Shown here: positions 5,845 through 61,932 of the stretch, piece after piece
Position numbering within the stretch: the stretch's first letter is position 1
Layout of the letters: every line of letters begins with the position of its first letter
Source of the DNA: Holophagales bacterium
GTDB taxonomy: Bacteria > Acidobacteriota > Thermoanaerobaculia > Multivoradales > UBA5704
Assembly: GCA_031390755.1 (NCBI GenBank)
Contig: JANMTS010000105.1
Coordinates: 64,007-128,006 of the forward strand
Direction of reading: 5' to 3'
Length of the DNA: 64,000 nucleotides
Notes under the pieces: model-generated
Told to the model about the DNA's origin: nothing
What the model saw: the letters and a program-made list of their open reading frames with translations, nothing else
Databases searched by the model: none
Position numbers and translations under genes: made by a program

Positions 5845-6180
5845 GTGTTGCAACTCCGCTCTTCTGCTACAAACAAGGTTATGTTGCAACAAATAAGGAT
5901 TCCCGTTCAACGGGAAAGCTTATCTGTTGCAAGTTAACCTTCTCTGTTGCAGCATAACCTTATCCCGCGGCCGAGAAGGTTATCCTGCAACAAAGAAGGT
6001 TTCCCGATCCTGGGATAAGCTTCTTTGTTGCAACTTGGGTTTATTTGTTGCAGCTTAACCTTCTCCCGAAGCCGCGTAACCTTCTTTGTTGCAACTTAAC
6101 CTTATCTGCCGCGGGATAAGGTCTCCCGAAGACGGGGAAACTTTGTTTGTTGCAGATGGAACCCAGGGGAATGCAAAAAT
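5845..6180. repeat. AT-rich iteron block (TGTTGCA(A/G)C x8 direct +1 inverted; TAACCTT/AAGGTTA inverted repeats; TTATCC/TTATCT boxes)
   Basis: GTTGCA starts near 5847, 5883, 5925, 5945, 6026, 6046, 6087 and 6138, plus one inverted copy at about 5987. Hand-counted GC is about 46% over 5881-6180, against about 70% in the flanks. Confidence 0.85.
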
Positions 6181-6186
6181 TTCCAC

Positions 6187-6810
6187 CTACCGGCGGGCGC
6201 GGACGATGAAGCGTTGGGGGGCGGAGCCGACGTAGTGGAACGGATAGCAGGTGACGAGCGTCAAGGCGGGCTCGTCGGTCGGGGCGAGCACCGAAACCTC
6301 GGAGGGATCGACGATCTTCGTCCACTCCACCTTGTAGTTGTAGGTGCCGTCGAGCATGGTCAGCTCGATCGTGTCGCCCTCGCGGACGTCCCTGAGACCC
6401 CGGAAGAAGCTGTCGCGGTGGGCGGCGAGGCCGACGTTGCCGGACGGCTCGGACGGCAGGGCGGTGTCCGGCACGTGACCCGCGGCGCGGCGGAGGGTCT
6501 GCTTGCCCACGCCCTCCAGGATCACGGCGGAAACGTCGAGCCGGGGGATCTCGATCCGCCCGAGCAGCTCCCCTTCCTGCAAAGGCTTCGGATCGGGATC
6601 GGTCTTCTGGGTCTTGAACGAGGAGAGGGAGTCCGTCTCCGAGGCGCCCCCGGTGGCAGCCCTGGCGGCGAGGGTCTCTTCGAGCCGCCGGGTCTCCCGG
6701 GCTTCGACGAAGCGGGTGTCGAGCCAGGCCCAGGTCCAGTAGCCGAGGCAGAGAATGCCGACCACGAACAGGGCGCGCTCCACCCAGAGCCAGGTCGAAG
6801 TCCTCGTCAT
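6187..6810 (-). CDS. sortase (class D/E-like transpeptidase)
   Basis: ORF 6187..6855, with the start taken at MTRTSTWLW (ATG 6810-6808). N-terminal TM anchor. Catalytic His (GLAAHRD), Cys (TLVTCYPF) and Arg (RFIVRA) motifs are present. Confidence 0.85.
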   Translation of the reverse strand: MTRTSTWLWVERALFVVGILCLGYWTWAWLDTRFVEARETRRLEETLAARAATGGASETDSLSSFKTQKTDPDPKPLQEGELLGRIEIPRLDVSAVILEGVGKQTLRRAAGHVPDTALPSEPSGNVGLAAHRDSFFRGLRDVREGDTIELTMLDGTYNYKVEWTKIVDPSEVSVLAPTDEPALTLVTCYPFHYVGSAPQRFIVRARR

Positions 6811-7536: not shown

Positions 7537-9219
<1,683 letters not shown>

Positions 9220-9470
9220 GGGGCTGCTCCTGGAATTGTTCGAGGGTTTGGAACCGGCGGCGCGGCTTCACGCAATTGAATCTGCGGAGGCCGGCCGGCC
9301 GCGAATTCTACCCCAGGTCGCACCCCAGGTCGAAGGCCCCGCGCGACGCCGGACTGCGGGATCGGAAGGGCACCCTTTCCCCGCCGAGACGCACACTAGA
9401 GATTGAGAGCCACGCGAGGGCACGCGCCCTCGATTGGCAGGAACGTCTTTCTGAACAGGAGGAAGTACTC

Positions 9471-20893: not shown

Positions 20894-20920
20894 GGGGAAG
20901 GGGGGGAATGGGATCAAACC
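20894..20920. repeat. family 1 element, partial copy B (GGGGAAGGGGGGGAATGGGATCAAACC)
   Basis: Only the G-rich/GGGATCAA tail is present. The TCA of GATCAA is the UbiD-family gene's stop codon on the minus strand. Confidence 0.5.
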
Positions 20921-26296: not shown

Positions 26297-26652
26297 AGGA
26301 AGAGAAGTCCCCCCAAGCCCTCCCGCCCGACGAGCTTGCGATCCAGGAGGGACTGCGGCAACTCGCCCTGGAATCCCGGATCGACCGTCCCGACCGCCCC
26401 GAACGTCCCCTGCCGGCAGCTTCGGATTTGTGGTGGCGCGCTGAGATCCTGTCCCGCTGGAACGCCCGGGACGACGCGGCCCGGGAGGCCGAGCGCCCGA
26501 TCGTCTGGGGCCGAGCCGCGGCCGGCGTCGCGGCCCTCCTCATTCCGCTGTGCTTCTTTGAGTCGGCGCCGTGGCTCATGGCGGGCCTCGCGGCGCTCGG
26601 AATGCCTCTGATCGTGCTTGTGGCCTGGCTCTTCCTGCAACGCGAGACTTGA
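26293..26652 (+). CDS. putative anti-sigma factor (single-pass membrane protein)
   Basis: Frame of ORF 25870..26652 trimmed to ATG 26293 (ATGA overlap with the sigma stop). 119 aa with C-terminal TM helices. Confidence 0.55.
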   Translation: MKEEKSPQALPPDELAIQEGLRQLALESRIDRPDRPERPLPAASDLWWRAEILSRWNARDDAAREAERPIVWGRAAAGVAALLIPLCFFESAPWLMAGLAALGMPLIVLVAWLFLQRET

Positions 26653-26747
26653 CGGTTCCGGCAGCTCGAGGCTGGCGGGAGCCGAGGGCCGCCTGCGTAC
26701 CTCCGTGTGAAGGCGTTCAAAACACCAATCCACGGAGAAAAACCGAT

Positions 26748-27428
26748 ATGTCTCTTCAAACTCTCGCGGCTCCGCAACTCGTCATCAACAGCCGCATGAT
26801 CTATTCGAGCTGGATTCCGGCCGACCCCAAGGCGGCCGCGGCCCTGCTGCCGTCCCGTCTCCGCCCGGCCGACAACCAGGCGATCTACATGAATCAGTAC
26901 GTCGTGGACTCGGAGGAGCAGACCTCCGGGTTCGGCGCCTACTCGCTGACCTACCTCGGACTCGACCTGGGAAATCTGACCGCCCCGGACGGCGTCACGC
27001 CCGCTCGATTCTTCACCAACTATCTCAATTCGTCCGCCATCATGCGCGAGTACGTGGCGGAGCGCGGCGTCCCTGCCTCGCCGGGCACGACCACGGTCGA
27101 AGTCCACGGCCATGATCTGGAAGCCACGACGTTCGTGGACGGAGTGGCGATCATCCGCACCCGCGCCAAGGTAGGCAAGAAGATCGGCGTCGTGGCGCGC
27201 GGCCATCTGACCTATCTGACGCAGCTCGACGGCAAGATCCTGGCGGGCAACTACGCCTACATCGGCGAGCTGGTCGATCCCTTCGAGCTGAAGTCGGTCG
27301 AGTTCCTGGCCAAGGACCACCCGCTCTGGGCGATCCGTCCCGCCGACCCCTTCCAGCCCGTGGCCGCGTCCTCCTGGTTCGCCCCGCGCGACTCGTTCGT
27401 CTACCCGGGCGGCGAGTACGAAGTCTGA
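26748..27428 (+). CDS. hypothetical protein (possibly acetoacetate-decarboxylase-like fold)
   Basis: ORF 26571..27428 trimmed to ATG 26748, preceded by GGAGAAAAA. 226 aa. The family call is weak. Confidence 0.5.
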   Translation: MSLQTLAAPQLVINSRMIYSSWIPADPKAAAALLPSRLRPADNQAIYMNQYVVDSEEQTSGFGAYSLTYLGLDLGNLTAPDGVTPARFFTNYLNSSAIMREYVAERGVPASPGTTTVEVHGHDLEATTFVDGVAIIRTRAKVGKKIGVVARGHLTYLTQLDGKILAGNYAYIGELVDPFELKSVEFLAKDHPLWAIRPADPFQPVAASSWFAPRDSFVYPGGEYEV

Positions 27429-27455
27429 AGTGGTTGGTCGGTCCCGCCCGGGAGG

Positions 27456-27976
27456 GAAGCCTCCGTCGGGATGACGGATGCTTCCGGCACGGCGCCGGAC
27501 CGAGAAGTCGGCCGCCGGAAGCATCCGCCGTGAACACGGACGTTTCCGGCGTACGACTGAAGCTTCCGGCGCGACGCCGGACCGGTAAGTCAGTCGACGG
27601 GAGCTTCCACCGTGAACACGGACGCATCCGGCGTGACGACTGAAGCTTCCGGCGCGGCGCGGAACCGGGAAGTCGGTCGCCGGAAGCATCCGCCTTGAAC
27701 ACGGACGCTTCCGGCGTACGACTGAAGCTTCTGGCGCGACGCCGGACCTGTAAGTCAGCCGACGGAAGCTTCCGGCGTGAACACGGACGCATACGGCATG
27801 GCGACCGAAGCTTCCGGCGCGGCGTCGGATCGGGAAGTCGGCTGGCGGACGAGTCCGGCACGACTACGGAAGCTGCCGCCATGACGGCGGACGCATCGGG
27901 CAAGACGACGGAAGCTTCCGGAGTGAGGACGGACGCGTCCGGCACGGCGCCGGATCGGGGGAAAGTGCCTTTCCCC
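27456..27976. repeat. tandem array 1 of 41-42-nt palindromic units (alternating A/B types, ~165-nt higher-order repeat) ending in the GGGGAAAG-tgc-CTTTCCCC hairpin
   Basis: GAAGC(T/A)TCC anchors at 27456, 27518, 27559, 27601, 27642, 27683, 27724, 27765, 27807, 27869 and 27911. Block 27518-27682 is repeated at 27683-27848. Confidence 0.9.
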
Positions 27977-28044
27977 GGAGCCGCGGGGCGGAAGGAAGAG
28001 CGCTACAATTGTGCCTCTTCCACCGTCCCTGCGAACGGAGCCCC

Positions 28045-28155
28045 ATGCCTCGAGCCAAGAAGACTTCCGTTCAGTACCTCATCCTCAGCCTGATCGCGTT
28101 GCCGGTCGTGATGTTCATCGCGTTCATCGCGTACTACCTTCTCAAGGGTCTTTGA
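28045..28155 (+). CDS. possible 36-aa single-TM small protein
   Basis: Hand translation gives MPRAKKTSVQYLILSLIALPVVMFIAFIAYYLLKGL*. GGAG lies 5 nt upstream, and the ORF ends 6 nt before the next gene. Below the ORF-track length cut-off. Confidence 0.4.
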   Translation: MPRAKKTSVQYLILSLIALPVVMFIAFIAYYLLKGL

Positions 28156-28161
28156 GCCGCG

Positions 28162-30468
28162 ATGAACGTACGCCGAGCTTCCGCCACCGCCACTATCGCC
28201 GGCATCACCGTCGTCGCCCTGCTCGCCTTCGCCGGCTTCGGTCAGGCTCAGCCGACCCTCTCGGAGCGCCAGCTCGACAACCTCGTCGCCTACACGCGGC
28301 TGCTCTCGCTCGTCCGTTTCTTCCATCCGTCGGACGCGGTGGCAGCGGCGGACTGGAGCAAGGTGGCGGTGGCGGGGGTTTCGCGGGTCCGGGATGCGGC
28401 GGACCCGGCGGAGCTTGCCTCGCGTCTGGAAGAGGTCTTCAGGCCTCTCGCTCCGACGTTGCGGGTCCGGCCTCGGGGGGAACGGCCGGAGACGCCTCCA
28501 GAGCTTCGGCCTCCCGCTTCTGATTCGCGCATCGTGGCCTGGCGGCACTTCGGCGGCGACTTCGGGGCTGATCGCAAGGTCTTCACCAGCGAGCGGATCG
28601 ACGACCAGACTCCGCCCGGCTTTGGCACGATGGCCCAGGCCGTGCTGCCCGGGCCGCTCAAGGGCAAGAGGATCCGGCTCCGCGCCTGGGTCAAGGCGGA
28701 AATGATGGGCGACGGTCGCGTTCAGCTCGGCCTGCGGGTCGATCGGGCCGGCGGCCAGGTCGGATTCTTCGACAACATGGCGGACCGTCCGCTGCGCACC
28801 ACTCCCTGGAAGCTGGTCGAGATCGAAGGCGACGTGGCTCCGGACGCCGAGAGGATCCTCGTCATGGTGGTGGTGACGGGCGGCGGCATGGTAAGGCTCG
28901 ACGAGGTCTCCCTCGCGGCGACCGACGGCAGGGGGCGGCAGGTTCTCCTCAATCCCGGCTTCGACGACGGCCAGCCCGGGGCTCCGCCGCCCGGCTGGCT
29001 CTTTCCCTACGAGTCGATCCGCGCCGGGTACGCGCTGACCCTTCGACGGGTGGACCAGTGCCGGGCCGGTGCCTGCCACGGAGCGTCCGCAGACTACATC
29101 GCCATGAGCGCTCCGCTGGTGTCGGTCTGCCGGACGGGCAGTTGCGCCGAGATCAGCAGCACCTCGATCGCCACTCCCACCTTCGTCAGGCCTGACCAGG
29201 TCAGGCAGGAGGATCTGGGCGGCGGCGTGACGGCCTGGCTGCCAGTCGCTCTCTACGCCGACCGCCAGGGGACGCTGCCTCGGTCTCCGTCCCCGGCGTT
29301 TCCGGGAATCGACGTGGCCGTCGACACCGCGGACACGCGCATGGCGGCGGCGGCGCTTGCCTGGGGCATCCTTCAGAATCTGCATCCCGAGCTGAAGAGG
29401 GAGGATCCGGCCTGGCTCCAGGCCTTGCGGTCCGTGCTGACCGCGGCGGCGGTCTCGGACCCGGAGGAGTTTTCCCGCATCGCCCGCACGCTGCTGGTGC
29501 CGCTCCACGACTCCCGGGCGTCCTTCTTCCGTCGAGACAATTCCGCGCGGCCCCTGGCGCTTCCTCTGACCTGGGAGTGGCTCGAAGGGCAGCTCGTCGT
29601 CACCGGTGTCGCGCAGGACGTGGCGGGGGGCGTGAAAGACATCCGGGTCGGGGACGTCGTCGAAGCGCTGGACGGCAAGTCCGCCGAGGAGGCCCTCGCG
29701 GCGGTGGAGGCTCGGACGTCCGCGGGCACGCCGGAGGGGCGGCGGTGGATGGCCCTGCAGGAGACGCTTTGGGGTCCGGCGGACTCGCGGGTGGCTCTTC
29801 GCCTCAAGACCGGAGCGGAGGTCGTCCTCGCGCGGACCGTGGCTCCGGGCGCGCGGCCCGCGGGCACGCCGCTGCCGAAGGTCTCGGAGCCCCGACCGGG
29901 CGTCGTCTATGTGGATCTCTCCCGGGTCGGCGACGAGGAGTTGGAGTCCCTGTCGCCGCGGCTGACGGCAGCCAAGGGGCTGATCTTCGACCTGAGAGGC
30001 GGAACCGAAGTCTCGACCGTGCTGCTGTCTCACCTGATCGATCACACGGCGGCCAGCTCAAACTGGCAGGTGCCGGTGGTGATGGAACCGGATTTTCGCG
30101 AGGTCAAGTGGCTGACCACGGTCTGGACCATCGAGCCGAAGGCGCCGCGCTACAAGGGAAAGGTCGCATTCCTGACGGACGGCCGCGCTGACGGATACGC
30201 CGAGACCCTGCTCGGTATGATCGAGGCCTACCGGCTGGGCGAGCGGGTGGGTGCCCGTTCGGGAGGCAGCAACGGCAGCTTCAACTGGAGCGACCTGCCT
30301 GGAGGCTGGAGGCTGATGTGGAGCGGCCAGCGCGTGCTCAAGCACGACGAATCGCCGCTGCAAGGCGTGGGCGTGGCGCCCACCCATCCGGCGGCCCGCA
30401 CCCTTCACGGCGTGGCGGCGGGCCGGGACGAGATCGTGGAGCGCGCGGTGGCGGTCGTGGGCGGCTGA
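28162..30468 (+). CDS. S41 (C-terminal processing/tricorn-core) peptidase-like protein with PDZ-like region; catalytic motifs appear degenerate
   Basis: ORF track, 768 aa with a signal peptide. GLIFDLRGG and VAFLTDGRADGYAETLLGMIE align by eye with the S41 DLRxNxGG and SASASE motifs. Confidence 0.6.
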   Translation: MNVRRASATATIAGITVVALLAFAGFGQAQPTLSERQLDNLVAYTRLLSLVRFFHPSDAVAAADWSKVAVAGVSRVRDAADPAELASRLEEVFRPLAPTLRVRPRGERPETPPELRPPASDSRIVAWRHFGGDFGADRKVFTSERIDDQTPPGFGTMAQAVLPGPLKGKRIRLRAWVKAEMMGDGRVQLGLRVDRAGGQVGFFDNMADRPLRTTPWKLVEIEGDVAPDAERILVMVVVTGGGMVRLDEVSLAATDGRGRQVLLNPGFDDGQPGAPPPGWLFPYESIRAGYALTLRRVDQCRAGACHGASADYIAMSAPLVSVCRTGSCAEISSTSIATPTFVRPDQVRQEDLGGGVTAWLPVALYADRQGTLPRSPSPAFPGIDVAVDTADTRMAAAALAWGILQNLHPELKREDPAWLQALRSVLTAAAVSDPEEFSRIARTLLVPLHDSRASFFRRDNSARPLALPLTWEWLEGQLVVTGVAQDVAGGVKDIRVGDVVEALDGKSAEEALAAVEARTSAGTPEGRRWMALQETLWGPADSRVALRLKTGAEVVLARTVAPGARPAGTPLPKVSEPRPGVVYVDLSRVGDEELESLSPRLTAAKGLIFDLRGGTEVSTVLLSHLIDHTAASSNWQVPVVMEPDFREVKWLTTVWTIEPKAPRYKGKVAFLTDGRADGYAETLLGMIEAYRLGERVGARSGGSNGSFNWSDLPGGWRLMWSGQRVLKHDESPLQGVGVAPTHPAARTLHGVAAGRDEIVERAVAVVGG

Positions 30469-39342: not shown

Positions 39343-39643
39343 CGCTCGCGTCCGGCAAATCGTTGGCCGAACCAAGTCCCACCTGATCTCTCTACGTGGC
39401 GACGACTTCCCCGTGGCGGGAATACCCGCAGTGGCACGATCTCATGGTCATCTGGCATTCAGCGCTTTGCGTTGGCCGCTTGCTCTCTGAAACGGCCATC
39501 GCGGACGCCTTCTGGGATACGTGTATCTGCCCGGATCGAGTCTGCCCCGACCTCACGCCACCCGATTAAGCCTAGAATGGGGTCTTTTACGGCAGAGCGA
39601 AGTTACTCGGTTGCTACGGGTCTGTTTCCCCAATGGAGGATCC

Positions 39644-42490
39644 ATGCTGGAGCCGGGCTTTACGTTTGTCCCCAAGGCAGTGGGAGAGTTGAGGAGTCCT
39701 AGAAAGGAAAGGATCGTCCGGGCTACTTTCTCGCCGGGAGGTCGCCTCTTGGCCGCGACCACGGATGCGGGCCAGATTCTGGTTTGGCGATGGGATGGTG
39801 AGGGTTATTCCCTCTCCGCCGAGAGTAAGACCATCGACGGTGGTAGCGTCAAGCCCTTATGCCTGGGTTGGTCGTCCAGGGCAAGCCTCCTCATCACTGG
39901 CTGGAGCGATGGTCTCCTGCGCGTCTACGACAGCAAGACCCTGGCGCTCGTCCGCCAATCTGAGGACGGCTCCGGCGGCGCCGTGCTCTGCTTGGCGGTT
40001 CATCCTCATAGCGCAGTCTTCGTTTCGGCCGCCGAGGGCGAGGGTGGACTCCGCGTTTGGAACGCAGCCAGGAAGAGGCTCCAGCCCATCCAAGAGGTCT
40101 CCGGCCCCGAGCAACAGACTTGGGGACTCTCCTGGCATCTCAGGGGAGGGCTCCTGGCTTCCTGCGGAGCCGACGAGAGGGTCCGGATCTGGCAGTATGA
40201 GGATAGATCGGACAAGCTTACTGAGAGCCAGCACATCGTCTCTCAGGCAAGGCAGGTCGTCTGGTCTCCCGATGCCGACCCTCTCCTCGCACACATCGAG
40301 CCCGCGGGGTGTCTCAAGCTGTGGCGGACCCGGCAGCGGGGGGCGGTCACCCTTCCTCACTCCGGAGAGGTCACTTCTGTCGTCTTCTCTCCCGACGGGT
40401 CGGTTTGCATTTCGAAGTCTTCCACGGGCCAGCTCCTCCTCTGGAGGTCGCCCTCCGGCGAGTTCCTTGAGTATATCGAGGAGAGAAAGATCACCTCCAT
40501 AGAGCCAGGCGGGCCACCTTTTCCAGCTGAGTTGGCGGTCCGCTCGGTCCAGGCACGGCCAGATTGGAACACTGAGGAACGCTCTGTCGCGCCTTCCGTC
40601 ACCCTTGCCTTCGATCTAGTCAACGCCGACCCGAGCGACCTCTGCCTCCGCATTTGGCGGCTTCGTCGAGAGGAGCGGGAGAGCCAGCCGCCGCCGCCAC
40701 GAGTTCGGGACTACGTTGTCACCTACCCTCAGCCGGGGACGCAGACAGTGGTCCAGGAGTCGATCCGTTTCTCGGGCCTCCAAGACCAAAAGGCCAGGGA
40801 GGATCAACTCGGATTCAAACCCTATGTCGAGGCCGTTGCCGACTTCCTCACCGACGCCGGAACGCGCCCGCCGCTCACCTTTTCGATCGAAGGGGAGTGG
40901 GGAGCTGGAAAGTCCTCCTTCATGGAGCAGGTTAGACAGCGAATCGAAGATAGGGAAGCCGGCAACCGGAAGGGGCCTCGGAGCCGGTTCCAGCGCCTCT
41001 GGCGAGGAAACCAGAGTCACATCCTCTCCTTCAATCTCTGGAGGCACGACAAAGAGGAATCTGTCTGGGCAGCCTTCGTCCTGGAACTCCTGCAGCAGCT
41101 CCGCCGGCAGTGCGGCCTCCCTCGCCGCCTTCTCGGCTGGGCCAATCTTTTCGTCTGGCGCCTTCAATGGACGAATGCTCTCTTCGGTTTTCTCCGGCTC
41201 GCTGCCTGGTTGATCATCATCGTGCTAGGCGCGATTGTCGTCTCGAACCTCCCGACTCAAACGCTGAGGCCCACCCAGACGCCGACTGCCGTGGACGATT
41301 CCACCAAAATACAGGAAGTCATCGATTCAATCGGGGATGCCCTCGACTCGCCCGAGAGCCTAGCGGTGCTCGTCCTCGTGGTTACGCTCCTGCTGAACGC
41401 CAAGCAACTCCTCGGGAACCCTTTGGATCTAGAGATCGGAAAGTACCTACGGTCCTCGGACTGGGAGAACCGAACCGCTTTTGTTGAACGCTTTCACAAG
41501 GATTTCGACCAGATCGTCCAGGCCTATGCTGGAAAAAAGAGGGTCTACGTCTTCGTCGACGACCTCGACCGGTGCGATGTCCCGCGAGCGGCCGACCTCA
41601 TGCAGGCGATCAACCTACTGATCTCCGAGAACCCGAACCTCCTCTTTATCTTAGGAATGGACCGGCAGAAGGTGGCGGCGGGCCTCGCGGTGAAATTCGC
41701 GAAGATCCTTCCCTATCTGCGGACGGAGGCGGTCCCCCAGGGCTACGGCCCGGCTGAGGGCCTGGTCTACGGATACGAGTTCATCGAGAAGTTCATTCAA
41801 ATTCCCTTCCAGCTCCCCCGCCCCTCCCGCGCGGACCTCACGAGATTCCTTCGTTCCCTCAGTCCTTCTGCAGACACCGGTGCCCCGACGGACCTGATCG
41901 ATCCCGGCCAAGAAGAACCGGAGTGGTCCGAAGATCTCGACCAGCCGACGCTTCCTCCTATGCCCCACCCTGCTCAGGATCCAACCGGACCTGGTTCCTC
42001 CATGCACTCCCTTCCGGCCGACAGGACCGTCCCGGCCCAACTGCCGACTCGGGAGGAATTGAGTCTCGCCATCGGCTTCGACTCAGGAATCGTTAGGGAG
42101 ACCGTCCTTCTCGTGGCCCCGGCTCTCGGTAACAACCCACGCCGGATCAAGCAATTCATCAATTCATTCCGGCTTCGTGCCTTCCTCGCCTATCATACGG
42201 GCCTGCTTGCCGGGCGGGAGAGCCATCCAGACAAGGTCACCTTCTACCAGCTTGGCAAGCTGGTAGTGTTGAGCCTGCGCTGGCCCCTCCTCCTAGCCGA
42301 GTTGCACGAGCGCCCCAACCTCCTTCGCAAGCTGGAAGCGGCTGCCACCGATCCGACCTATCTCCCTGGTGATTCGGAAAAGCGTTGGACGAATCAACCG
42401 CGACTCATGGCCCTGCTCCGCTCCCGGAGCTCCTCGCCCCACAAGAACCTGGCCTCATTGGACGTCAAACTCTTGCTGCGGATCTCTTGA
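39644..42490 (+). CDS. WD40 beta-propeller fused to a KAP-family P-loop NTPase (membrane-inserted)
   Basis: ORF 39521..42490 trimmed to ATG 39644 (GGAGGA RBS). About 7 WD-like blades (…GQILVWRWD, DGLLRVYD, GGLRVWN, DERVRIWQ, GCLKLWR, GQLLLWR, CLRIWRL). Walker A GEWGAGKSSF (~40893-40919). Two TM helices are inserted before Walker B VYVFVDDLDRC (~41543-41575). Confidence 0.85.
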   Translation: MLEPGFTFVPKAVGELRSPRKERIVRATFSPGGRLLAATTDAGQILVWRWDGEGYSLSAESKTIDGGSVKPLCLGWSSRASLLITGWSDGLLRVYDSKTLALVRQSEDGSGGAVLCLAVHPHSAVFVSAAEGEGGLRVWNAARKRLQPIQEVSGPEQQTWGLSWHLRGGLLASCGADERVRIWQYEDRSDKLTESQHIVSQARQVVWSPDADPLLAHIEPAGCLKLWRTRQRGAVTLPHSGEVTSVVFSPDGSVCISKSSTGQLLLWRSPSGEFLEYIEERKITSIEPGGPPFPAELAVRSVQARPDWNTEERSVAPSVTLAFDLVNADPSDLCLRIWRLRREERESQPPPPRVRDYVVTYPQPGTQTVVQESIRFSGLQDQKAREDQLGFKPYVEAVADFLTDAGTRPPLTFSIEGEWGAGKSSFMEQVRQRIEDREAGNRKGPRSRFQRLWRGNQSHILSFNLWRHDKEESVWAAFVLELLQQLRRQCGLPRRLLGWANLFVWRLQWTNALFGFLRLAAWLIIIVLGAIVVSNLPTQTLRPTQTPTAVDDSTKIQEVIDSIGDALDSPESLAVLVLVVTLLLNAKQLLGNPLDLEIGKYLRSSDWENRTAFVERFHKDFDQIVQAYAGKKRVYVFVDDLDRCDVPRAADLMQAINLLISENPNLLFILGMDRQKVAAGLAVKFAKILPYLRTEAVPQGYGPAEGLVYGYEFIEKFIQIPFQLPRPSRADLTRFLRSLSPSADTGAPTDLIDPGQEEPEWSEDLDQPTLPPMPHPAQDPTGPGSSMHSLPADRTVPAQLPTREELSLAIGFDSGIVRETVLLVAPALGNNPRRIKQFINSFRLRAFLAYHTGLLAGRESHPDKVTFYQLGKLVVLSLRWPLLLAELHERPNLLRKLEAAATDPTYLPGDSEKRWTNQPRLMALLRSRSSSPHKNLASLDVKLLLRIS

Positions 42491-42567: not shown

Positions 42568-42852
42568 CTACAGGCCGCCGCATTCCGCTGCCCGCTCGAA
42601 GCTGACCAGTCTCCGCACGAGAGCGTTGTATCGGGAATGAGCCGAGTCTGTTCCCGAGCTGGCGAGGAGCTCGTAGAGGCGGTGCTCCGCAGTCGGGATG
42701 ACCTGGTCGGGCACGGGGAGGCCGATCCGTCGGAGTCGGGGAGCCCCGATCGACACCAGCAGGGCGGGGATCGACTCGATGCCACGAACGAGATCGGCGA
42801 GCCCTTCCTCCACCAGATCCCCTCCCGGCAATGCGTGCAGATTCAGAGCCAT
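42568..42852 (-). CDS. hypothetical 94-aa protein
   Basis: ORF 42568..43212 trimmed to ATG 42852-42850 (MALNLHALPGG...). The upstream part of the ORF is the repeat array. Confidence 0.45.
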   Translation of the reverse strand: MALNLHALPGGDLVEEGLADLVRGIESIPALLVSIGAPRLRRIGLPVPDQVIPTAEHRLYELLASSGTDSAHSRYNALVRRLVSFERAAECGGL

Positions 42853-42928
42853 TCCGAGAGTATAGGGTCCGCGAACTGCCCAGGGGCCGACCACGTCCAG
42901 CGGGAGTCTGTCCGCGACGTGCAACCGA

Positions 42929-43440
42929 GGGAAAGGCGCTTTCCCCGCATCCGGCGCCGCGCCGGACGCATCCGCCGTGATGCCGGAAGCTTCCGCCGTC
43001 ATGACGGACGCGTACGGGACCACGACGGAAGCGTCAGCCGTCATGCCGGACGCGTACGGGACCGCGCCGGAAGCTTCAGCCGTCACGACGGACGCGTACG
43101 GGACCGCGACGGTAGCTTCCGCCGTCATGACGGACGCGTACGGGACCGCGCCGGAAGCTTCAGCCGTCAAGCCGGACGCGTACGGGACCACGACGGAAGC
43201 TTCCGCCGTCACGACGGATGCAACGGGGCCGCGACGGAAGCTTCAGCCGTCACGACGGACGCGTACGGGACCACGACGGAAGCTTCAGCCGTCACGACGG
43301 ATGCAACGGGACCGCGACGGGAGCTTCCGCCGTCATGCCGGACGCGTACGGGACCACGCCGGAAGCTTCCGTCGTCATGCCGGATGCGTACGGGACCACG
43401 GCGGAAGCGACCGGCGCCGTGCCGGAGATCGCTGGAAAGG
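42929..43440. repeat. tandem array 2: ten 41/42-nt units GGAAGCTTC(C/A)GCCGTCA(T/C)GACGGACGCGTACGGGACC(A/G)CGAC plus degenerate end units; terminal hairpin GGGAAAG-gcg-CTTTCCC at the left end
   Basis: Unit starts at 42985, 43027, 43069, 43111, 43153, 43195, 43236, 43278, 43319, 43361 and 43403. Two units are 41 nt and the rest 42 nt. Confidence 0.92.
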
Positions 43441-43538
43441 TGTGCGGCTGGGATGGGCCGACCTCTTCCGGGGTCGCTCGTCGCCCGAGATGTCCTCCGG
43501 GGAGGCCAGAGTTGCGGGGCCTGATATCCTTCGGGGCC

Positions 43539-46500
43539 ATGCGCAACATGACGCGGTTTCTTCTTTCGCTCCTCCTCGTTCCTGCCTTCGCGCAGGCCGA
43601 GGTTCTCCCCTGCATGCCCTGCGCGGGCGTCCGGTTCGAGCCCGTTCAGTCCCTTCCCGTAGCGGCAGCCGAGACGTTTCGGCCCGGGCCGATCGCGGAA
43701 GCTCAGCCGTCCTCCGCTCCGATGACGATGTCGAACCCGGCCGAGCTTCCGGGTCTGCTGGCTCAGGCGAAGCTGGAGAAGGGGAGTCCCCTCTTCGTGG
43801 CCTGGGATGTCCAGCTCGACGGGACGGCGGGTCCGGATGCCAATCCAGGGGACACGGCGGCCCGCATCGTCGAGGCCGGCGGCACGCCCTGGATCTCCCT
43901 GGTGTTTCACACTCCGGCTCCGGTCGCCCAGAACGCCGAGCGGCTCCAGGCCGAGCTGCGCGCCGCGGTCGCGGTGGCCGCAGCGGCTCCTCCCCAGGCT
44001 TGGTTCCAGATCGTCTGGCGGCCCGACGGCCTGGAGGGGCAGCCGGAGGGGCAGATCGCGGCGGCCGACTATGCGTTCCTCCTGAAGCGCGCGGCCGTGG
44101 CGATCACCGGCGCCCGCTCCGAAGTTCGCGTGGCGACCGGTCCCCTGCCCGCCGATCCGGCGTTCCTGGAGGCGTTCTACGGTGAGGAGGTCACGGCCTA
44201 CCTGGATGCGGTCGCCCTTCAGCCCGCGGCGGCCGAGGCTCTGACCAGGGCTTCGGAGGCTGTCGAGCGGCTCGATCCGGGCCGGCCGGTGGTGCTTGAT
44301 GCCGTGCCCATGCCGGCCGCCGCGGGCGAGATCCTGTCGGACTCCGCGCGCAACGCGGTGCGCGGCATCGGATTGACGCTGTTCCGGACCACCCTGGTCA
44401 ACGGCCAGACGCTCTCGCCGCTCGCGCTGCTGGCCCGGGAATTCGCCGGCGACGTCTCCTACGGCGCTGGCGACGTGCCCACCGGCGCCCAGGAGGCGTG
44501 GACGTTCGTGCGCGGCAAGGATTACTCGTTGCGCGTCATCGCCCTGGCTCCCCCGGGTGCGAGCGAGCTGGCGCTGCGGTTCTCCGATCCCTATCTGCGG
44601 CGGCCGACCCGGTTCCCGTACACGTTCGACAAGGTCGGGGCTCCGCAGGGAGACGCCCAGGAGAAGGGGCTCGTGGTGCGGCTCGACAACCCCGGCCGCG
44701 TGGCGGTGATCGGGCTTGAACGAGCCACCGCCGCCGAGCGCGAGGGGGTCGAGGAGAAGGTCGACGTGGCCACGGCGCGCGAGATGCCGGTCGAGGAGAT
44801 CCTCCGCCGGCTCCAGGCGTTCGAGGACGCGCAGGACCGCAAGCTCGATCACTACCAGGCGATCAACACCACCCACCTGCGGTTCCAGCCGGCGGCAGGC
44901 ACGCAGACCTTCGAGGCCACGCTCCAGGGACCGTTCTTCGTGGGTGACACGACGGGCTCGGACTGGGCCTGGCAGACGCTCTACGTCAACGGCGTGAAGT
45001 GGCGCAGCAAGTCGATCCCCGAGATCCCGCTCGTGCAGCCGGAGAAAGCTGCGGCCCTGCCGCTCCAGATCCTGTTCACCAAGCAGTACCGCTACCGGCT
45101 GCGCGGCACCGACACGGTCGACGGCCGCGACGCCTGGGTGATCGACTTCGCTCCGGCCGGACCGGGCGAGCCGGGCAAGCTCTACCAGGGCAGCGTCTGG
45201 GTCGACCGGCAGATCTACGCCCGGCTGCGCACCCGCGCCGTCCAAGTCGGCCTGGAAGGCGAGGTCATCTCGAACGAGGAGACGATGACCTACTCCCCGA
45301 TCGACGCCCAGGGCCAGCCCGCGCCTTGGTCAGGCGAGAGCTACGTGCTGCCGCTGCACATCGTGGCCCAGCAGATCCTCTCGGTTGTGAATGCCACGAC
45401 GGTCGTGGAGCGCGAGACCGTGCTCTCGGAGGTGAAGGTCAACGCCGCGGACTTCGACGAGAAGCGCGCCGCGATCGCCGACACCGACGTGACCATGGTG
45501 CGCGACACGGACAAGGGGCTGCGGTATCTGGTGAAGGAGGAGGGCTCCGAGGAGCGCGTGGTCAAGGAAGGGTTCGACAAGAGCAAGCTCTTCCTGGCTG
45601 GCGGCGCGTTCTACGACGACGCGCTCGACTACCCGCTGCCGCTGGCGGGCGTGAACTACTTCAACTTCGACTTCCGCGGCACGGGCAAGCAGCTGAACGT
45701 TTTCTTCGCCGGCGCGCTGCTCACCGCCAACGTGGCCGAGCCGCGGCTCTTCGGCAGCAAGTTCGACCTCGGCGCGCAGGCGTTCGCCGTGGCGGTTCCG
45801 TTCAGCGACAGTCTTTACCGGGACGGCGAGGAGATCACCGGCGAAGAGGTGGACGTGCGCACCGCGAAGCTCGGCGTGAAGCTCGGCCGGCCGCTCGGGA
45901 GCTTCGTGAAGATCGGGCTCGACTACGACGTCCTCTTCCTCACCTACGGCGACACGGACAACACGGCCGACGGCTACGTGCCGCCGACCGACAACCAGAC
46001 CCACTCCCTGGAAGGCACGTTCAGCTTCTCGCGCGGCGGCTACGGCTTCCGCGCCAATGCGGGTTTGAGCCGGCGCTCGGAGTGGGAGCCCTGGGGCTTC
46101 GCGGGGAACCCGGACTACAGCGCGGACAAGGACGAGTTCATGCGCTGGGGCGCCCGGCTGAGCAAGAACTGGTATCTGCCGAAGTTCCAGAAGATCGGCG
46201 CCGAGGTCGACTATGTCTCGGGCTCGGACCTGGACCGGTTCAACAAGTACCAGTTCGGGTTCTTCGGCAGCACGCGCGTCCACGGCTATCAGTCGAACCG
46301 GGTGCGGGCGGAAGAAGCGCTGGCCGTTCACGGAACCTACGGCTTCGAGATCGGCCAGGCGCTGCGGCTCGACGCGGTGGGCGACGTGGCCTGGGCCACG
46401 GACGAGGCGACGGGGCTCGACAACGAGATGCTGGCGGGCGTGGGCATCGCCGGGACGTTCATCGGCCCGTGGCAGACGGTGGTGAACCTGGACGTGGGCG

Positions 46501-46565
46501 TGCCGGTGGCGGGGCCGGACGACGGGTTTGTGTTCTACGTGGTGTTCTTGAAGTTATTCAAGTAG
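43539..46565 (+). CDS. large outer-membrane protein: unknown N-terminal region + LolA/outer-membrane-lipoprotein-sorting-like module + Omp85/surface-antigen-type beta-barrel
   Basis: ORF 43218..46565 trimmed to ATG 43539 (MRNMTRFLLSLLLVPAFAQA, a signal peptide). ...DGRDAWVIDFAP...KLYQGSVWVDRQIYARLR is LolA-like. The C-terminal 350 aa are beta-barrel-like and end in F-K. Confidence 0.7.
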   Translation: MRNMTRFLLSLLLVPAFAQAEVLPCMPCAGVRFEPVQSLPVAAAETFRPGPIAEAQPSSAPMTMSNPAELPGLLAQAKLEKGSPLFVAWDVQLDGTAGPDANPGDTAARIVEAGGTPWISLVFHTPAPVAQNAERLQAELRAAVAVAAAAPPQAWFQIVWRPDGLEGQPEGQIAAADYAFLLKRAAVAITGARSEVRVATGPLPADPAFLEAFYGEEVTAYLDAVALQPAAAEALTRASEAVERLDPGRPVVLDAVPMPAAAGEILSDSARNAVRGIGLTLFRTTLVNGQTLSPLALLAREFAGDVSYGAGDVPTGAQEAWTFVRGKDYSLRVIALAPPGASELALRFSDPYLRRPTRFPYTFDKVGAPQGDAQEKGLVVRLDNPGRVAVIGLERATAAEREGVEEKVDVATAREMPVEEILRRLQAFEDAQDRKLDHYQAINTTHLRFQPAAGTQTFEATLQGPFFVGDTTGSDWAWQTLYVNGVKWRSKSIPEIPLVQPEKAAALPLQILFTKQYRYRLRGTDTVDGRDAWVIDFAPAGPGEPGKLYQGSVWVDRQIYARLRTRAVQVGLEGEVISNEETMTYSPIDAQGQPAPWSGESYVLPLHIVAQQILSVVNATTVVERETVLSEVKVNAADFDEKRAAIADTDVTMVRDTDKGLRYLVKEEGSEERVVKEGFDKSKLFLAGGAFYDDALDYPLPLAGVNYFNFDFRGTGKQLNVFFAGALLTANVAEPRLFGSKFDLGAQAFAVAVPFSDSLYRDGEEITGEEVDVRTAKLGVKLGRPLGSFVKIGLDYDVLFLTYGDTDNTADGYVPPTDNQTHSLEGTFSFSRGGYGFRANAGLSRRSEWEPWGFAGNPDYSADKDEFMRWGARLSKNWYLPKFQKIGAEVDYVSGSDLDRFNKYQFGFFGSTRVHGYQSNRVRAEEALAVHGTYGFEIGQALRLDAVGDVAWATDEATGLDNEMLAGVGIAGTFIGPWQTVVNLDVGVPVAGPDDGFVFYVVFLKLFK

Positions 46566-61676: not shown

Positions 61677-61932
61677 TCCCGCTACGGCACACCGAGAAGG
61701 ATCTGAAGCCGCTGGTCGGCAACTGAGAGGGTGTTTGGAAAGTCCCTTTCCTCAGGCTCCCCCAGTCTGCAGGCCTCGGAACCAGCCTTTCCAAACAGCC
61801 TCTGAGGTCCGGCTCCTCCGACACCCCTTCGCCTTTCCCGGGTCGCCGCGGCACGCGTTCCGGGAACATTCATCCTTCGATCCTTGACTATCGGTGCTAC
61901 CATTCCAGGAACGTTGTTGGAGATCCTTTCTC

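Follow-up and report, generated by a model that had tools for sequence, protein, structure and literature searches.

We analysed a 64-kb stretch of DNA (the window) from a Holophagales bacterium of the class Thermoanaerobaculia, Acidobacteriota (contig JANMTS010000105.1), in which an earlier note, made from the sequence alone, had described a tandem array of palindromic units in an intergenic gap. This array (array 1) is a non-coding stretch of ~500 bp between two genes, and a second array of the same family (array 2) lies ~15 kb away. All searches of the window cover these 64 kb; related loci and matching contigs from other genomes and metagenomes are cited by L numbers. The arrays and the features that flank them are as follows (aa, amino acids; ORF, open reading frame).

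27455..27954, plus strand: body of array 1, 24-25 units of 20/21 bp, from Tandem Repeats Finder (TRF) and chaining of cores
27931..27979, plus strand: terminal module of array 1, GGACGCGTCCGGCACGGCGCCGGATCGG followed by the perfect hairpin GGGGAAAG-tgc-CTTTCCCC (27958-27976) and CGG
42947..43425, minus strand: body of array 2, 22-23 units of 21 bp (two of 20), of the array 1 family and inverted relative to array 1
42926..42946, minus strand: terminal hairpin of array 2, GGGGAAAG-cgc-CTTTCCC on the minus strand, then CGG
26571..27428, plus strand: gene upstream of array 1, 285 aa, weak acetoacetate-decarboxylase-like match
28045..28155, plus strand: 36-aa ORF matching the N-terminal transmembrane part of a 136-aa Coa1-like (PF08695) gene
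28162..30468, plus strand: S41 family peptidase, first gene of a block of conserved order
42568..42853, minus strand: 95-aa ORF facing the hairpin end of array 2, no Pfam family, not conserved at this position in relatives
43446..43538, plus strand: promoter/leader block of the 1008-aa gene, GACCTCTyCCG ... GGCCAGrGTTGC ... TGATATCCT
43539..46565, plus strand: conserved 1008-aa secreted protein, no Pfam family

The base unit of array 1 is 21 bp, sometimes 20, with the core CGGA[A/C]GCnTCCG. Its consensus, (ac)CGGA[A/C]GCnTCCG(g)CG, consists of a 10-12-bp dyad and a 9-nt linker. Cores of the GGAAGCTTCC type alternate with cores of the GGACGCnTCC type, and every fourth unit is degenerate (GGACCGGTAAG). 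Chained cores are spaced 20 or 21 nt apart, with a mean of 20.6 bp, and about one unit in three is 20 nt long. Periods were detected with TRF and units were counted by chaining of cores. TRF returned periods of 21, 41, 82 and 165 over 27455-27849 and of 21/42 over 27844-27954, and the nested periods of the array are 42, 82/83 and 165 bp. The 165-nt higher-order period, which had been proposed before, is borne out both by TRF and by the 88% identity of block 27455-27619 to block 27620-27784; the third 165-nt block has diverged (match ~51%).

The earlier note had described units of 41-42 nt and two types, A and B. This periodicity exists, but the A and B units are dimers of the 21-bp unit, because a second core, GGACGCnTCC, sits midway between the anchors from which they were defined; the 41-nt spacings arise because the fourth unit is degenerate. 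Each of the eleven anchors was found at its claimed coordinate. Most fit the pattern GAAGC(T/A)TCC, but three are off by one base (27456, GAAGCCTCC; 27724, GAAGCTTCT; 27869, GAAGCTGCC). Likewise, the spacing of the two 62-nt "gaps" is correct, but they are not gaps, as each consists of three units.

Array 1 is real and far above chance. With at most one mismatch, GGAAGCTTCC matched the window 22 times, compared to 3.4 +/- 1.8 times (maximum 8) in dinucleotide shuffles of the window, which set the chance level. All but one of the 22 matches (21/22) fall within the two arrays, and the remaining one is inside a coding region. As had been argued, this is not a repeat-spacer array: all 21-nt segments are family members and none is unique. 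A CRISPR array was ruled out by this lack of unique spacers and by the absence of Cas domains from the 43 window ORFs that we scanned. The possibility of an assembly artefact, raised in the same note, is answered by an independent short-read assembly, L021 (SRR20217208), which matches the window at 100% identity over 3982 nt starting at 27946 and confirms the array 1 junction. Since the units are non-identical, artefactual collapse or expansion is also unlikely. L021 stops inside the last unit, indicating that the region is hard to assemble, and short-read contigs end at arrays in L021, L023 and L035. The arrays are multi-copy enough to break assemblies.

Both arrays are non-coding. For array 1, where destroyed reading frames had been noted before, GC content by codon position is flat and the 20-nt units break all frames; array 2 has two such units, and orthologues of the flanking genes start outside the arrays. 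The predicted start of one gene call, P0121 (1076 aa), falls within array 2 and is in frame with the 1008-aa gene. Judging from its orthologues, which begin at the signal peptide, P0121 is an over-extension. As 21 nt corresponds to a heptad, we considered whether the array codes, or once coded, for a heptad-repeat peptide, with TEASAVM/TDAYGTT (one strand) and VVVPYAS/VMTAEAS (opposite strand) as candidates. In array 2, GC content at third codon positions (GC3) is ~86% in two of six frames, P0121 begins within this array, and a 21-nt array in L024 (6236-6640) can be read as a DLNERL heptad of coiled-coil-like character, at 100% GC3. However, no frame remains open in either array, three-periodic composition is automatic for any 21-nt repeat, and composition by codon position is flat over array 1. 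Moreover, the 1008-aa orthologues start at the signal peptide, some in genomes that lack the array, and the peptides differ between the arrays, although the DNA motif is common to them. Broken frames, flat GC3 and orthologue starts outside the arrays rule out a protein-coding repeat, and a coding origin in any form is extremely improbable.

Array 2 is highly regular, with periods of 42/84 bp and a mean spacing of 20.9 bp. The plus strand of array 1 aligns to the minus strand of array 2 over ~560 nt with a single gap, the size of one unit; 68% of positions are identical overall, and 80% within the last 80 nt. Common to both is the module GGAyGCGTCCGGCrCGGCGCCGGAT-nn-GGGGAAAGnGCCTTTCCC-CGG, and homology stops just past the hairpin, where the next 16 nt are 38% identical, which is background. 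The perfect hairpin described as closing array 1 at 27958-27976 is present in the sequence (GGGGAAAGnnnCTTTCCC is the hairpin sequence and CGGAnGCnTCCG the repeat-unit core). The array bodies align nearly as well in opposite orientation, since the units are almost dyad-symmetric, and so it is the terminal module that sets array polarity. The hairpin end points towards the start of a gene in each copy, lying 69 nt from the start of the 36-aa ORF at 28045 in array 1 and 76 nt upstream of the ATG (42853) of the minus-strand 95-aa ORF in array 2. Homology of the 5′ flanks was rejected, as the 52% match is chance and the array 2 side is a conserved promoter block. Variants of the terminal hairpin also occur as single copies at 9371-9389 (GGAAGGGCACCCTTTCC) and 61736-61752 (TGGAAAGTCCCTTTCCT), one in a divergent and one in a convergent gap; these may be dispersed singleton copies of the hairpin module.

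The whole arrays fold far better than shuffles (z -7.8 for array 1 and -7.0 for array 2), and the A and B units of array 1 (41-46 nt) fold at -23.8 and -23.6 kcal/mol (z -3.8 and -3.9), in agreement with the claim that the A unit forms a hairpin. The 21-bp core by itself has a stem of only 4 bp. An apparent A/T covariation of neighbouring array 1 cores is a product of the 165-nt duplication, not of base pairing.

Such folding would be expected of a structured non-coding RNA, transcribed toward the terminal hairpin (for array 1, as the 3′ untranslated region of the upstream gene), that acts either as a protein sponge, with GGA every 21 nt, or as a stabiliser and terminator of the upstream message. 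The sponge RNAs CsrB and RsmZ carry ~20 GGA repeats in ~0.5 kb and have a terminal hairpin. The arrays likewise hold ~20 GGA repeats over ~0.5 kb closed by a hairpin: ACGGA/CCGGA recurs ~24 times per array, the GC-rich hairpin is at one end in both copies, and array 1 lies directly 3′ of a co-directional gene. Unlike in the sponge RNAs, however, GGA is predicted to be in stems rather than loops, and Rfam gave nothing at gathering score for the arrays (at E <= 1, only chance matches to eukaryotic microRNA or long non-coding RNA models). Scans around either array detected neither a sigma-70-like promoter nor an intrinsic terminator, and the hairpin lacks a U-tract. A sigma-54 reading of GGCCAGGGTTGC was discarded because its spacing is two nt short. 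Array 2 is oriented in a way that does not fit a free-standing RNA gene, as it would be a 5′ leader with a "terminator" ahead of its gene. Tandem self-complementary units also fold well automatically, there are no compensatory changes among units, and other array families of the lineage lack GGA. We therefore consider an RNA of this kind improbable.

The genes around array 1 differ in how well they are conserved. The stop codon of the 285-aa gene is 27 nt before the array, and relatives are without this gene at this position; upstream, back to an ABC-F gene (7537-9219), gene content differs between genomes. On the other side, the small ORF at 28045, noted earlier as lying just downstream of the hairpin, is a real gene that matches the Coa1-like N terminus. 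In relatives, a 136-aa Coa1-like gene precedes the S41 peptidase, and the window copy is truncated to its N-terminal part. The TACAAT box (28005-28010) proposed before is promoter-like and aligns with a conserved TATCCT of relatives, whose Coa1 promoter contains a conserved GTGCGGTATCCTCC aligned with GCGCTACAAT of the window. From there on gene order is kept: Coa1-like, S41 peptidase, SpoIIAA-like/STAS-like, M20 peptidase, asd, aspartate kinase, dapB and dapA. At the 1008-aa gene, conservation starts at one base (GACCTCTyCCG) in six genomes and the block is ~90 nt long, with array 2 abutting its upstream edge. Homologues of the S41 peptidase and the 1008-aa protein assign the window to Thermoanaerobaculia, Acidobacteriota. 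A -10-like TATCCT is present in both conserved promoter blocks (43446-43538 and 27995-28044, and their equivalents in L022-L040), within TGATATCCT and GTGCGGTATCCTCC, and may be the usual -10 form in the lineage. The ~19 kb between the ABC-F gene and the Coa1-S41 block (7537-28045) are replaced in relatives by very different content, which includes toxin-antitoxin pairs, an Mrr restriction enzyme and a 1065-aa protein; this stretch resembles a variable-region hot spot whose right edge is occupied by array 1.

Comparison of orthologous gaps revealed extensive turnover. Four different palindromic families fill the Coa1-S41 gap. Besides array 1, we found six 42-nt long-hairpin units (GGAAATTCGAGGGGCG-aggGT-CGCCCCTCGAATTTCC) in L022, L023 and L035, four TGGGGAn5TCCCCA palindromes in L024, L025 and L033 (isolated palindromes, at spacings of 61, 42 and 62 bp in L024 and L033), and a 20-nt TTGTTGCAAC/GTGGATAAG array in L026 (9190-9490). 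L034, a more distant genome, lacks the gap altogether. At the 1008-aa gap, where the gene orthologues compared are 81-82% identical, L038 has seven units of the window family (CCGGAAnnTTCCGGCGTGAAC..., 29/42 identical to an array 1 unit), and L039 has eleven 42-nt units of the window terminal-hairpin module in opposite orientation relative to the gene. L036 has a degenerate GC-rich stretch, L037 one palindrome, and L040 and L041 no array. Thus, the unit count at this gap is 23 in the window, 7 in L038 and 0 in L040/L041, and the gap is in at least three states among the genomes compared. The L039 units include the 17-mer GCCGGATCGGGGGAAAG, identical to the window, and a second hairpin (GTCGGCnnnnnGCCGAC), with CTAC (GTAG on the other strand) in 8/11 copies. 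The hairpin module is expanded separately in L039; the 21-bp units and this module amplify independently, and the element is a modular mosaic.

The arrays at the 1008-aa gap all abut one conserved promoter block, just outside it, and the Coa1 promoter presents a like picture. Both gaps of a genome carry one repeat family: in the window it is the array 1 family, and in L033 and L037, which are from one sample, the palindrome at both gaps is an identical ATGGGGAACGCTTCCCCAAC. Gene contexts are co-directional (array 1, L006 and L038), divergent (array 2) or convergent (L032 and L034). Thus, equivalent gaps hold species-specific families in mosaic clusters, and one tandem family occurs at several loci with a copy number that varies between genomes. 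This turnover between relatives argues that the flanking genes do not need the arrays to be expressed.

The same core at 21-bp spacing was found in three further contigs: L018, another Thermoanaerobaculia metagenome-assembled genome (MAG), with ~13-15 units; L006, a Phycisphaeraceae MAG, with ~8 units; and L032, a soil contig, with ~20 units between convergent genes. The scan of genome contigs imposed GCTTCC and GCGTCC every 21 nt. It yielded 20 matches, mostly coding or chance (Streptomyces, and an 84-nt acidic repeat in L012), and L006 and L018 were the only relatives of the arrays among them. A scan of metagenome contigs gave six matches, with a bacterial array only in L032. A BLAST search of 72,556 plasmids and a pattern scan of viral contigs produced no match to the arrays, and our literature search on 21-bp intergenic palindromic arrays or Thermoanaerobaculia repeats found nothing specific. 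A cross-phylum likeness in "FR/VR heptads" (the window, L018 and Flammeovirgaceae contigs L002 and L014) was discarded, as the search pattern of GCTTCC/GCGTCC every 21 nt forces it. The Flammeovirgaceae MAG JAJTEH01 (Bacteroidota) has AT-rich 21-nt arrays (TTTTTACGGA[A/C]GC...) in four contigs, L002, L009, L014 and L020; these read as RKKKVGF/RKKKTRV heptads and are unrelated to the window family bar the pattern-imposed hexamers. L030 contains, at 211-380, a satellite of 21-bp period (GGGAAGCTTCCTGAACCTTCA) made up of adjoining GAAnnTTC units that resemble heat-shock elements, with (TG)n microsatellites on its flanks; it is probably eukaryotic DNA in a metagenome.

The reading that we favour, with confidence that stands about midway between acceptance and doubt, is that array 1 is one copy of an interspersed, hypervariable, non-coding extragenic palindromic repeat family that has grown by tandem amplification and resembles clusters of repetitive extragenic palindromic (REP) sequences, bacterial interspersed mosaic elements (BIMEs) or mycobacterial interspersed repetitive units (MIRUs). 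That the arrays are non-essential selfish or structural repeats seems to us evenly balanced between true and false. REP units are imperfect palindromes of 20-40 nt that form a stem-loop with a 5-13-bp stem and an unpaired GTAG or CGTC at one end of the hairpin; a genome has many of them, dispersed between genes as singletons, dimers and clusters, and they flank a gene for an IS200/IS605-like Y1 transposase (PMC3733652). Clusters of REPs reiterated in tandem, families specific to a species, and sizeable blocks confined to few loci are on record, for example the tandem GTAG REPs of Thauera sp. MZ1T and the GTAG-23 REP blocks of Thermomicrobium roseum (PMC3733652). Like BIME and REP clusters (E. 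coli BIME-2 and others), our arrays are extragenic, consist of imperfect palindromes with alternating unit types in tandem, form mosaics with other short motifs, belong to species-specific families in equivalent gaps, undergo rapid gain and loss, and occupy all gene-orientation contexts. They differ in that the unit is a 21-bp dyad rather than a 20-40-nt stem-loop with an unpaired tag and in that ~24 units run head to tail, with a polar terminal hairpin module.

Neisserial intergenic mosaic elements (NIMEs) are also comparable, as both are large intergenic mosaics that interleave short palindromic repeats with other modules. However, NIME units are 50-150-bp RS segments bounded by 20-bp dRS3 repeats of the CGTC type (PMC3733652), whereas here the short dyad unit is itself tandemly repeated. 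With MIRUs, the arrays share the distribution of one tandem family over several intergenic loci and a varying copy number (0, 7 and 23 at an orthologous gap). MIRUs are 46-101 bp long, not palindromic, located inside operons, and contain small ORFs coupled to the flanking genes. In contrast, the array units are dyad-symmetric with broken frames, the arrays are outside the promoter blocks, and coupled ORFs were not found.

Several observations weigh against the favoured reading. The link to REPs and their associated tyrosine transposases (RAYTs) suggested in the earlier note was not confirmed. The arrays do not qualify as REPs in the strict sense. Neither the 21-bp units nor the window hairpins carry a GTAG/CGTC tag: the window arrays have no regular GTAG/CTAC, CGTC occurs in array 2 only within the CCGTCATGACGG palindrome, and the window hairpins are flanked by CGG/GAT. 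The homologous hairpin unit of L039, which alone has a GTAG-type tag as in GTAG REPs (PMC3733652), speaks for the favoured reading. The Pfam scan of the 43 window ORFs found no Y1_Tnp/RAYT, other transposase, Rep, ParA/ParB or Cas domain, and gene tables covering ~226 kb of related loci list no transposase except one DDE_5 in L039. There are no isolated single or paired units within the 64 kb, and a head-to-tail layout is unusual for classical REPs (PMC3733652). The 42-nt unit of array 2 folds no better than shuffles (z -0.3), and it is the phased motif that is conserved, not hairpin strength, which suits protein recognition better than hairpin function. Also unfavourable are the recurrence of the core at 21-bp spacing in L006, L018 and L032 and the near-equal length of the window arrays (24 and 23 units).

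These points bear on a different explanation, a phased protein-binding array, in which a dimeric DNA-binding protein would recognise every 10-12-bp dyad (CGGAnGCnTCCG) as an operator-like site. With sites every 20.6-21 bp, or two helical turns, on one face of the helix, ~24 dimers could load cooperatively into a filament or wrap and play an architectural role, titrate protein as a sink, or provide a regulatory platform upstream, beside a promoter. Although we consider it unlikely, we keep this as the main rival because two helical turns is the spacing expected for cooperative dimer loading. The mean periods are 20.6 bp in array 1 and 20.9 bp in array 2, and the core is the best-conserved part across unit types, both arrays, and other genomes and phyla with different linkers. 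In every clearly non-coding array that we met in ~290 kb of Thermoanaerobaculia DNA, a small sample that includes at least 5-6 unrelated families, dyads are 20-21 bp apart (or 42, which is 2 x 21), and the L024 and L033 palindromes, at 61, 42 and 62 bp, fit this too. The L026 array has DnaA-box-like GTGGATAAG motifs at a 20-40-bp period, and both window arrays, L018 and L038 adjoin promoters.

Precedents for such spacing are the ~22-bp iterons of plasmids R6K and RK2 and the 20-bp repeats of pSK41 parC, which load many protein copies on one DNA face. Iterons are directional, number 3-10 copies, and are found beside rep or par genes with an AT-rich region and DnaA boxes. The arrays share with iterons and type II centromeres the 20-22-bp repeats at two helical turns, and thus the helical phase, but they have no adjacent rep or par gene, AT-rich region or DnaA boxes, and the region is uniformly GC-rich. 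Other data also disfavour a binding array. At the same promoters, arrays are present, absent or replaced in close relatives; L032 and L034 are between convergent genes; many half-sites are broken, with array 2 keeping the plus-strand TCC in only 8/23 units; no cognate regulator, Rep or Par gene lies beside the arrays; and the window has no isolated operator copies. The 21-nt period may simply be the size of a minimal hairpin plus linker.

A broader form of this idea is that "phased dyad arrays" of 0.2-0.5 kb occur throughout the Thermoanaerobaculia, and perhaps in some Planctomycetota, as several sequence families, each with its own dimeric protein, and that 10-25 dimers, loaded cooperatively, assemble beside promoters, where variable regions border, into a complex with an architectural or titration role. 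To our knowledge, no phased dyad array system has been described for bacterial chromosomes, and we regard this proposal as doubtful, indeed quite unlikely.

Three other arrays of the lineage, unrelated in sequence to arrays 1 and 2, are described here for completeness. A third non-coding array in the window (5875-6103), between a sortase gene and a 264-aa gene on the minus strand, is AT-richer, with a period of ~20 bp and a 101-bp higher order. It combines the palindrome TTGTTGCAAC with TTATC[C/T] motifs and small GGnTTCCCG...CGGGAAA hairpins, and its family (TTTGTTGCAAC / GTGGATAAG, DnaA-box-like) also fills the Coa1-S41 gap of L026. L024 has, at 6236-6640, 19 units of CCTCTCGTCGAGGTCGTTGAG with a 21-bp period and a 167-nt higher order; on the other strand these read as a frameshifted DLNERL coiled-coil heptad, and the array may be a decayed coiled-coil coding repeat. 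In L034, ~12 units of GTACCCnnnGGGTAC (7710-7971), a CsoR-operator-like dyad with a 21-bp period, lie between convergent genes.

Returning to the extragenic repeat family, a model for its origin is that a 21-bp near-dyad unit (CGGA[A/C]GCnTCCG plus the 9-nt linker) multiplied in head-to-tail fashion through slippage or unequal recombination. Growth would have proceeded through 42-nt dimers first and then 4- and 8-unit blocks, giving rise to the 82/83- and 165-nt periods; the nested 42/82-83/165-nt periods suggest such stepwise tandem amplification. The repeat array would have been joined to a separate hairpin module, GCCGGATnnGGGGAAAGnnnCTTTCCC. The element, which may be mobile, sits in spacer that evolves freely, immediately outside the conserved promoter block of the adjoining operon. 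From one related genome to the next it is gained or lost, varies in copy number, flips, or gives way to another palindromic family. Cores are degenerate in many units, and no compensating changes accompany this; the element probably has no dedicated function. Any activity would probably be generic, arising at the DNA level from phased dyads and from sequence prone to form cruciforms or hairpins. Were transcription to continue into it from the upstream gene, its RNA would form a stable hairpin chain ending in a GC-rich stem-loop, which could stop read-through or exonucleases ahead of the next promoter.

We also observed features outside the arrays. Just left of array 2, at 39521-42490, is a 989-aa fusion of a WD40 beta-propeller and a KAP-family P-loop NTPase, an architecture of the conflict or defence type, with a GC3 below that of its neighbours. 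A perfect 28-nt palindrome (CCCTCTCCCTCACGCGTGAGGGAGAGGG) lies at 2757-2784, downstream of a TonB-dependent receptor gene, and the motif ATGGGATCAA(A/C)CC occurs at 2795-2812 and 20900-20917, beside the stop codons of two minus-strand genes. In one relative (L024, 12292-15121; L025, 3685-6514), a reverse-transcriptase (RVT_1) gene and two small ORFs are inserted between the S41 peptidase and the STAS-like gene.

If the reading as an extragenic repeat family is correct, the Thermoanaerobaculia, an uncultured soil class, would join the bacteria with abundant, fast-evolving extragenic palindromic repeats, here with an unusual architecture: dyad units of 21 bp, ~24 of them per array, and a terminal hairpin module that can be separated from them. 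Such arrays break short-read assemblies and make gene callers over-extend ORFs, as with P0121. They mark the edges of variable regions beside gene blocks of conserved order and could serve in strain typing. The 20-21-bp dyad spacing in unrelated families and the GGAnGCnTCC core in another phylum deserve a wider look, and if a protein reads the arrays, these would represent chromosomal elements of a new kind, with an architectural or titration role.

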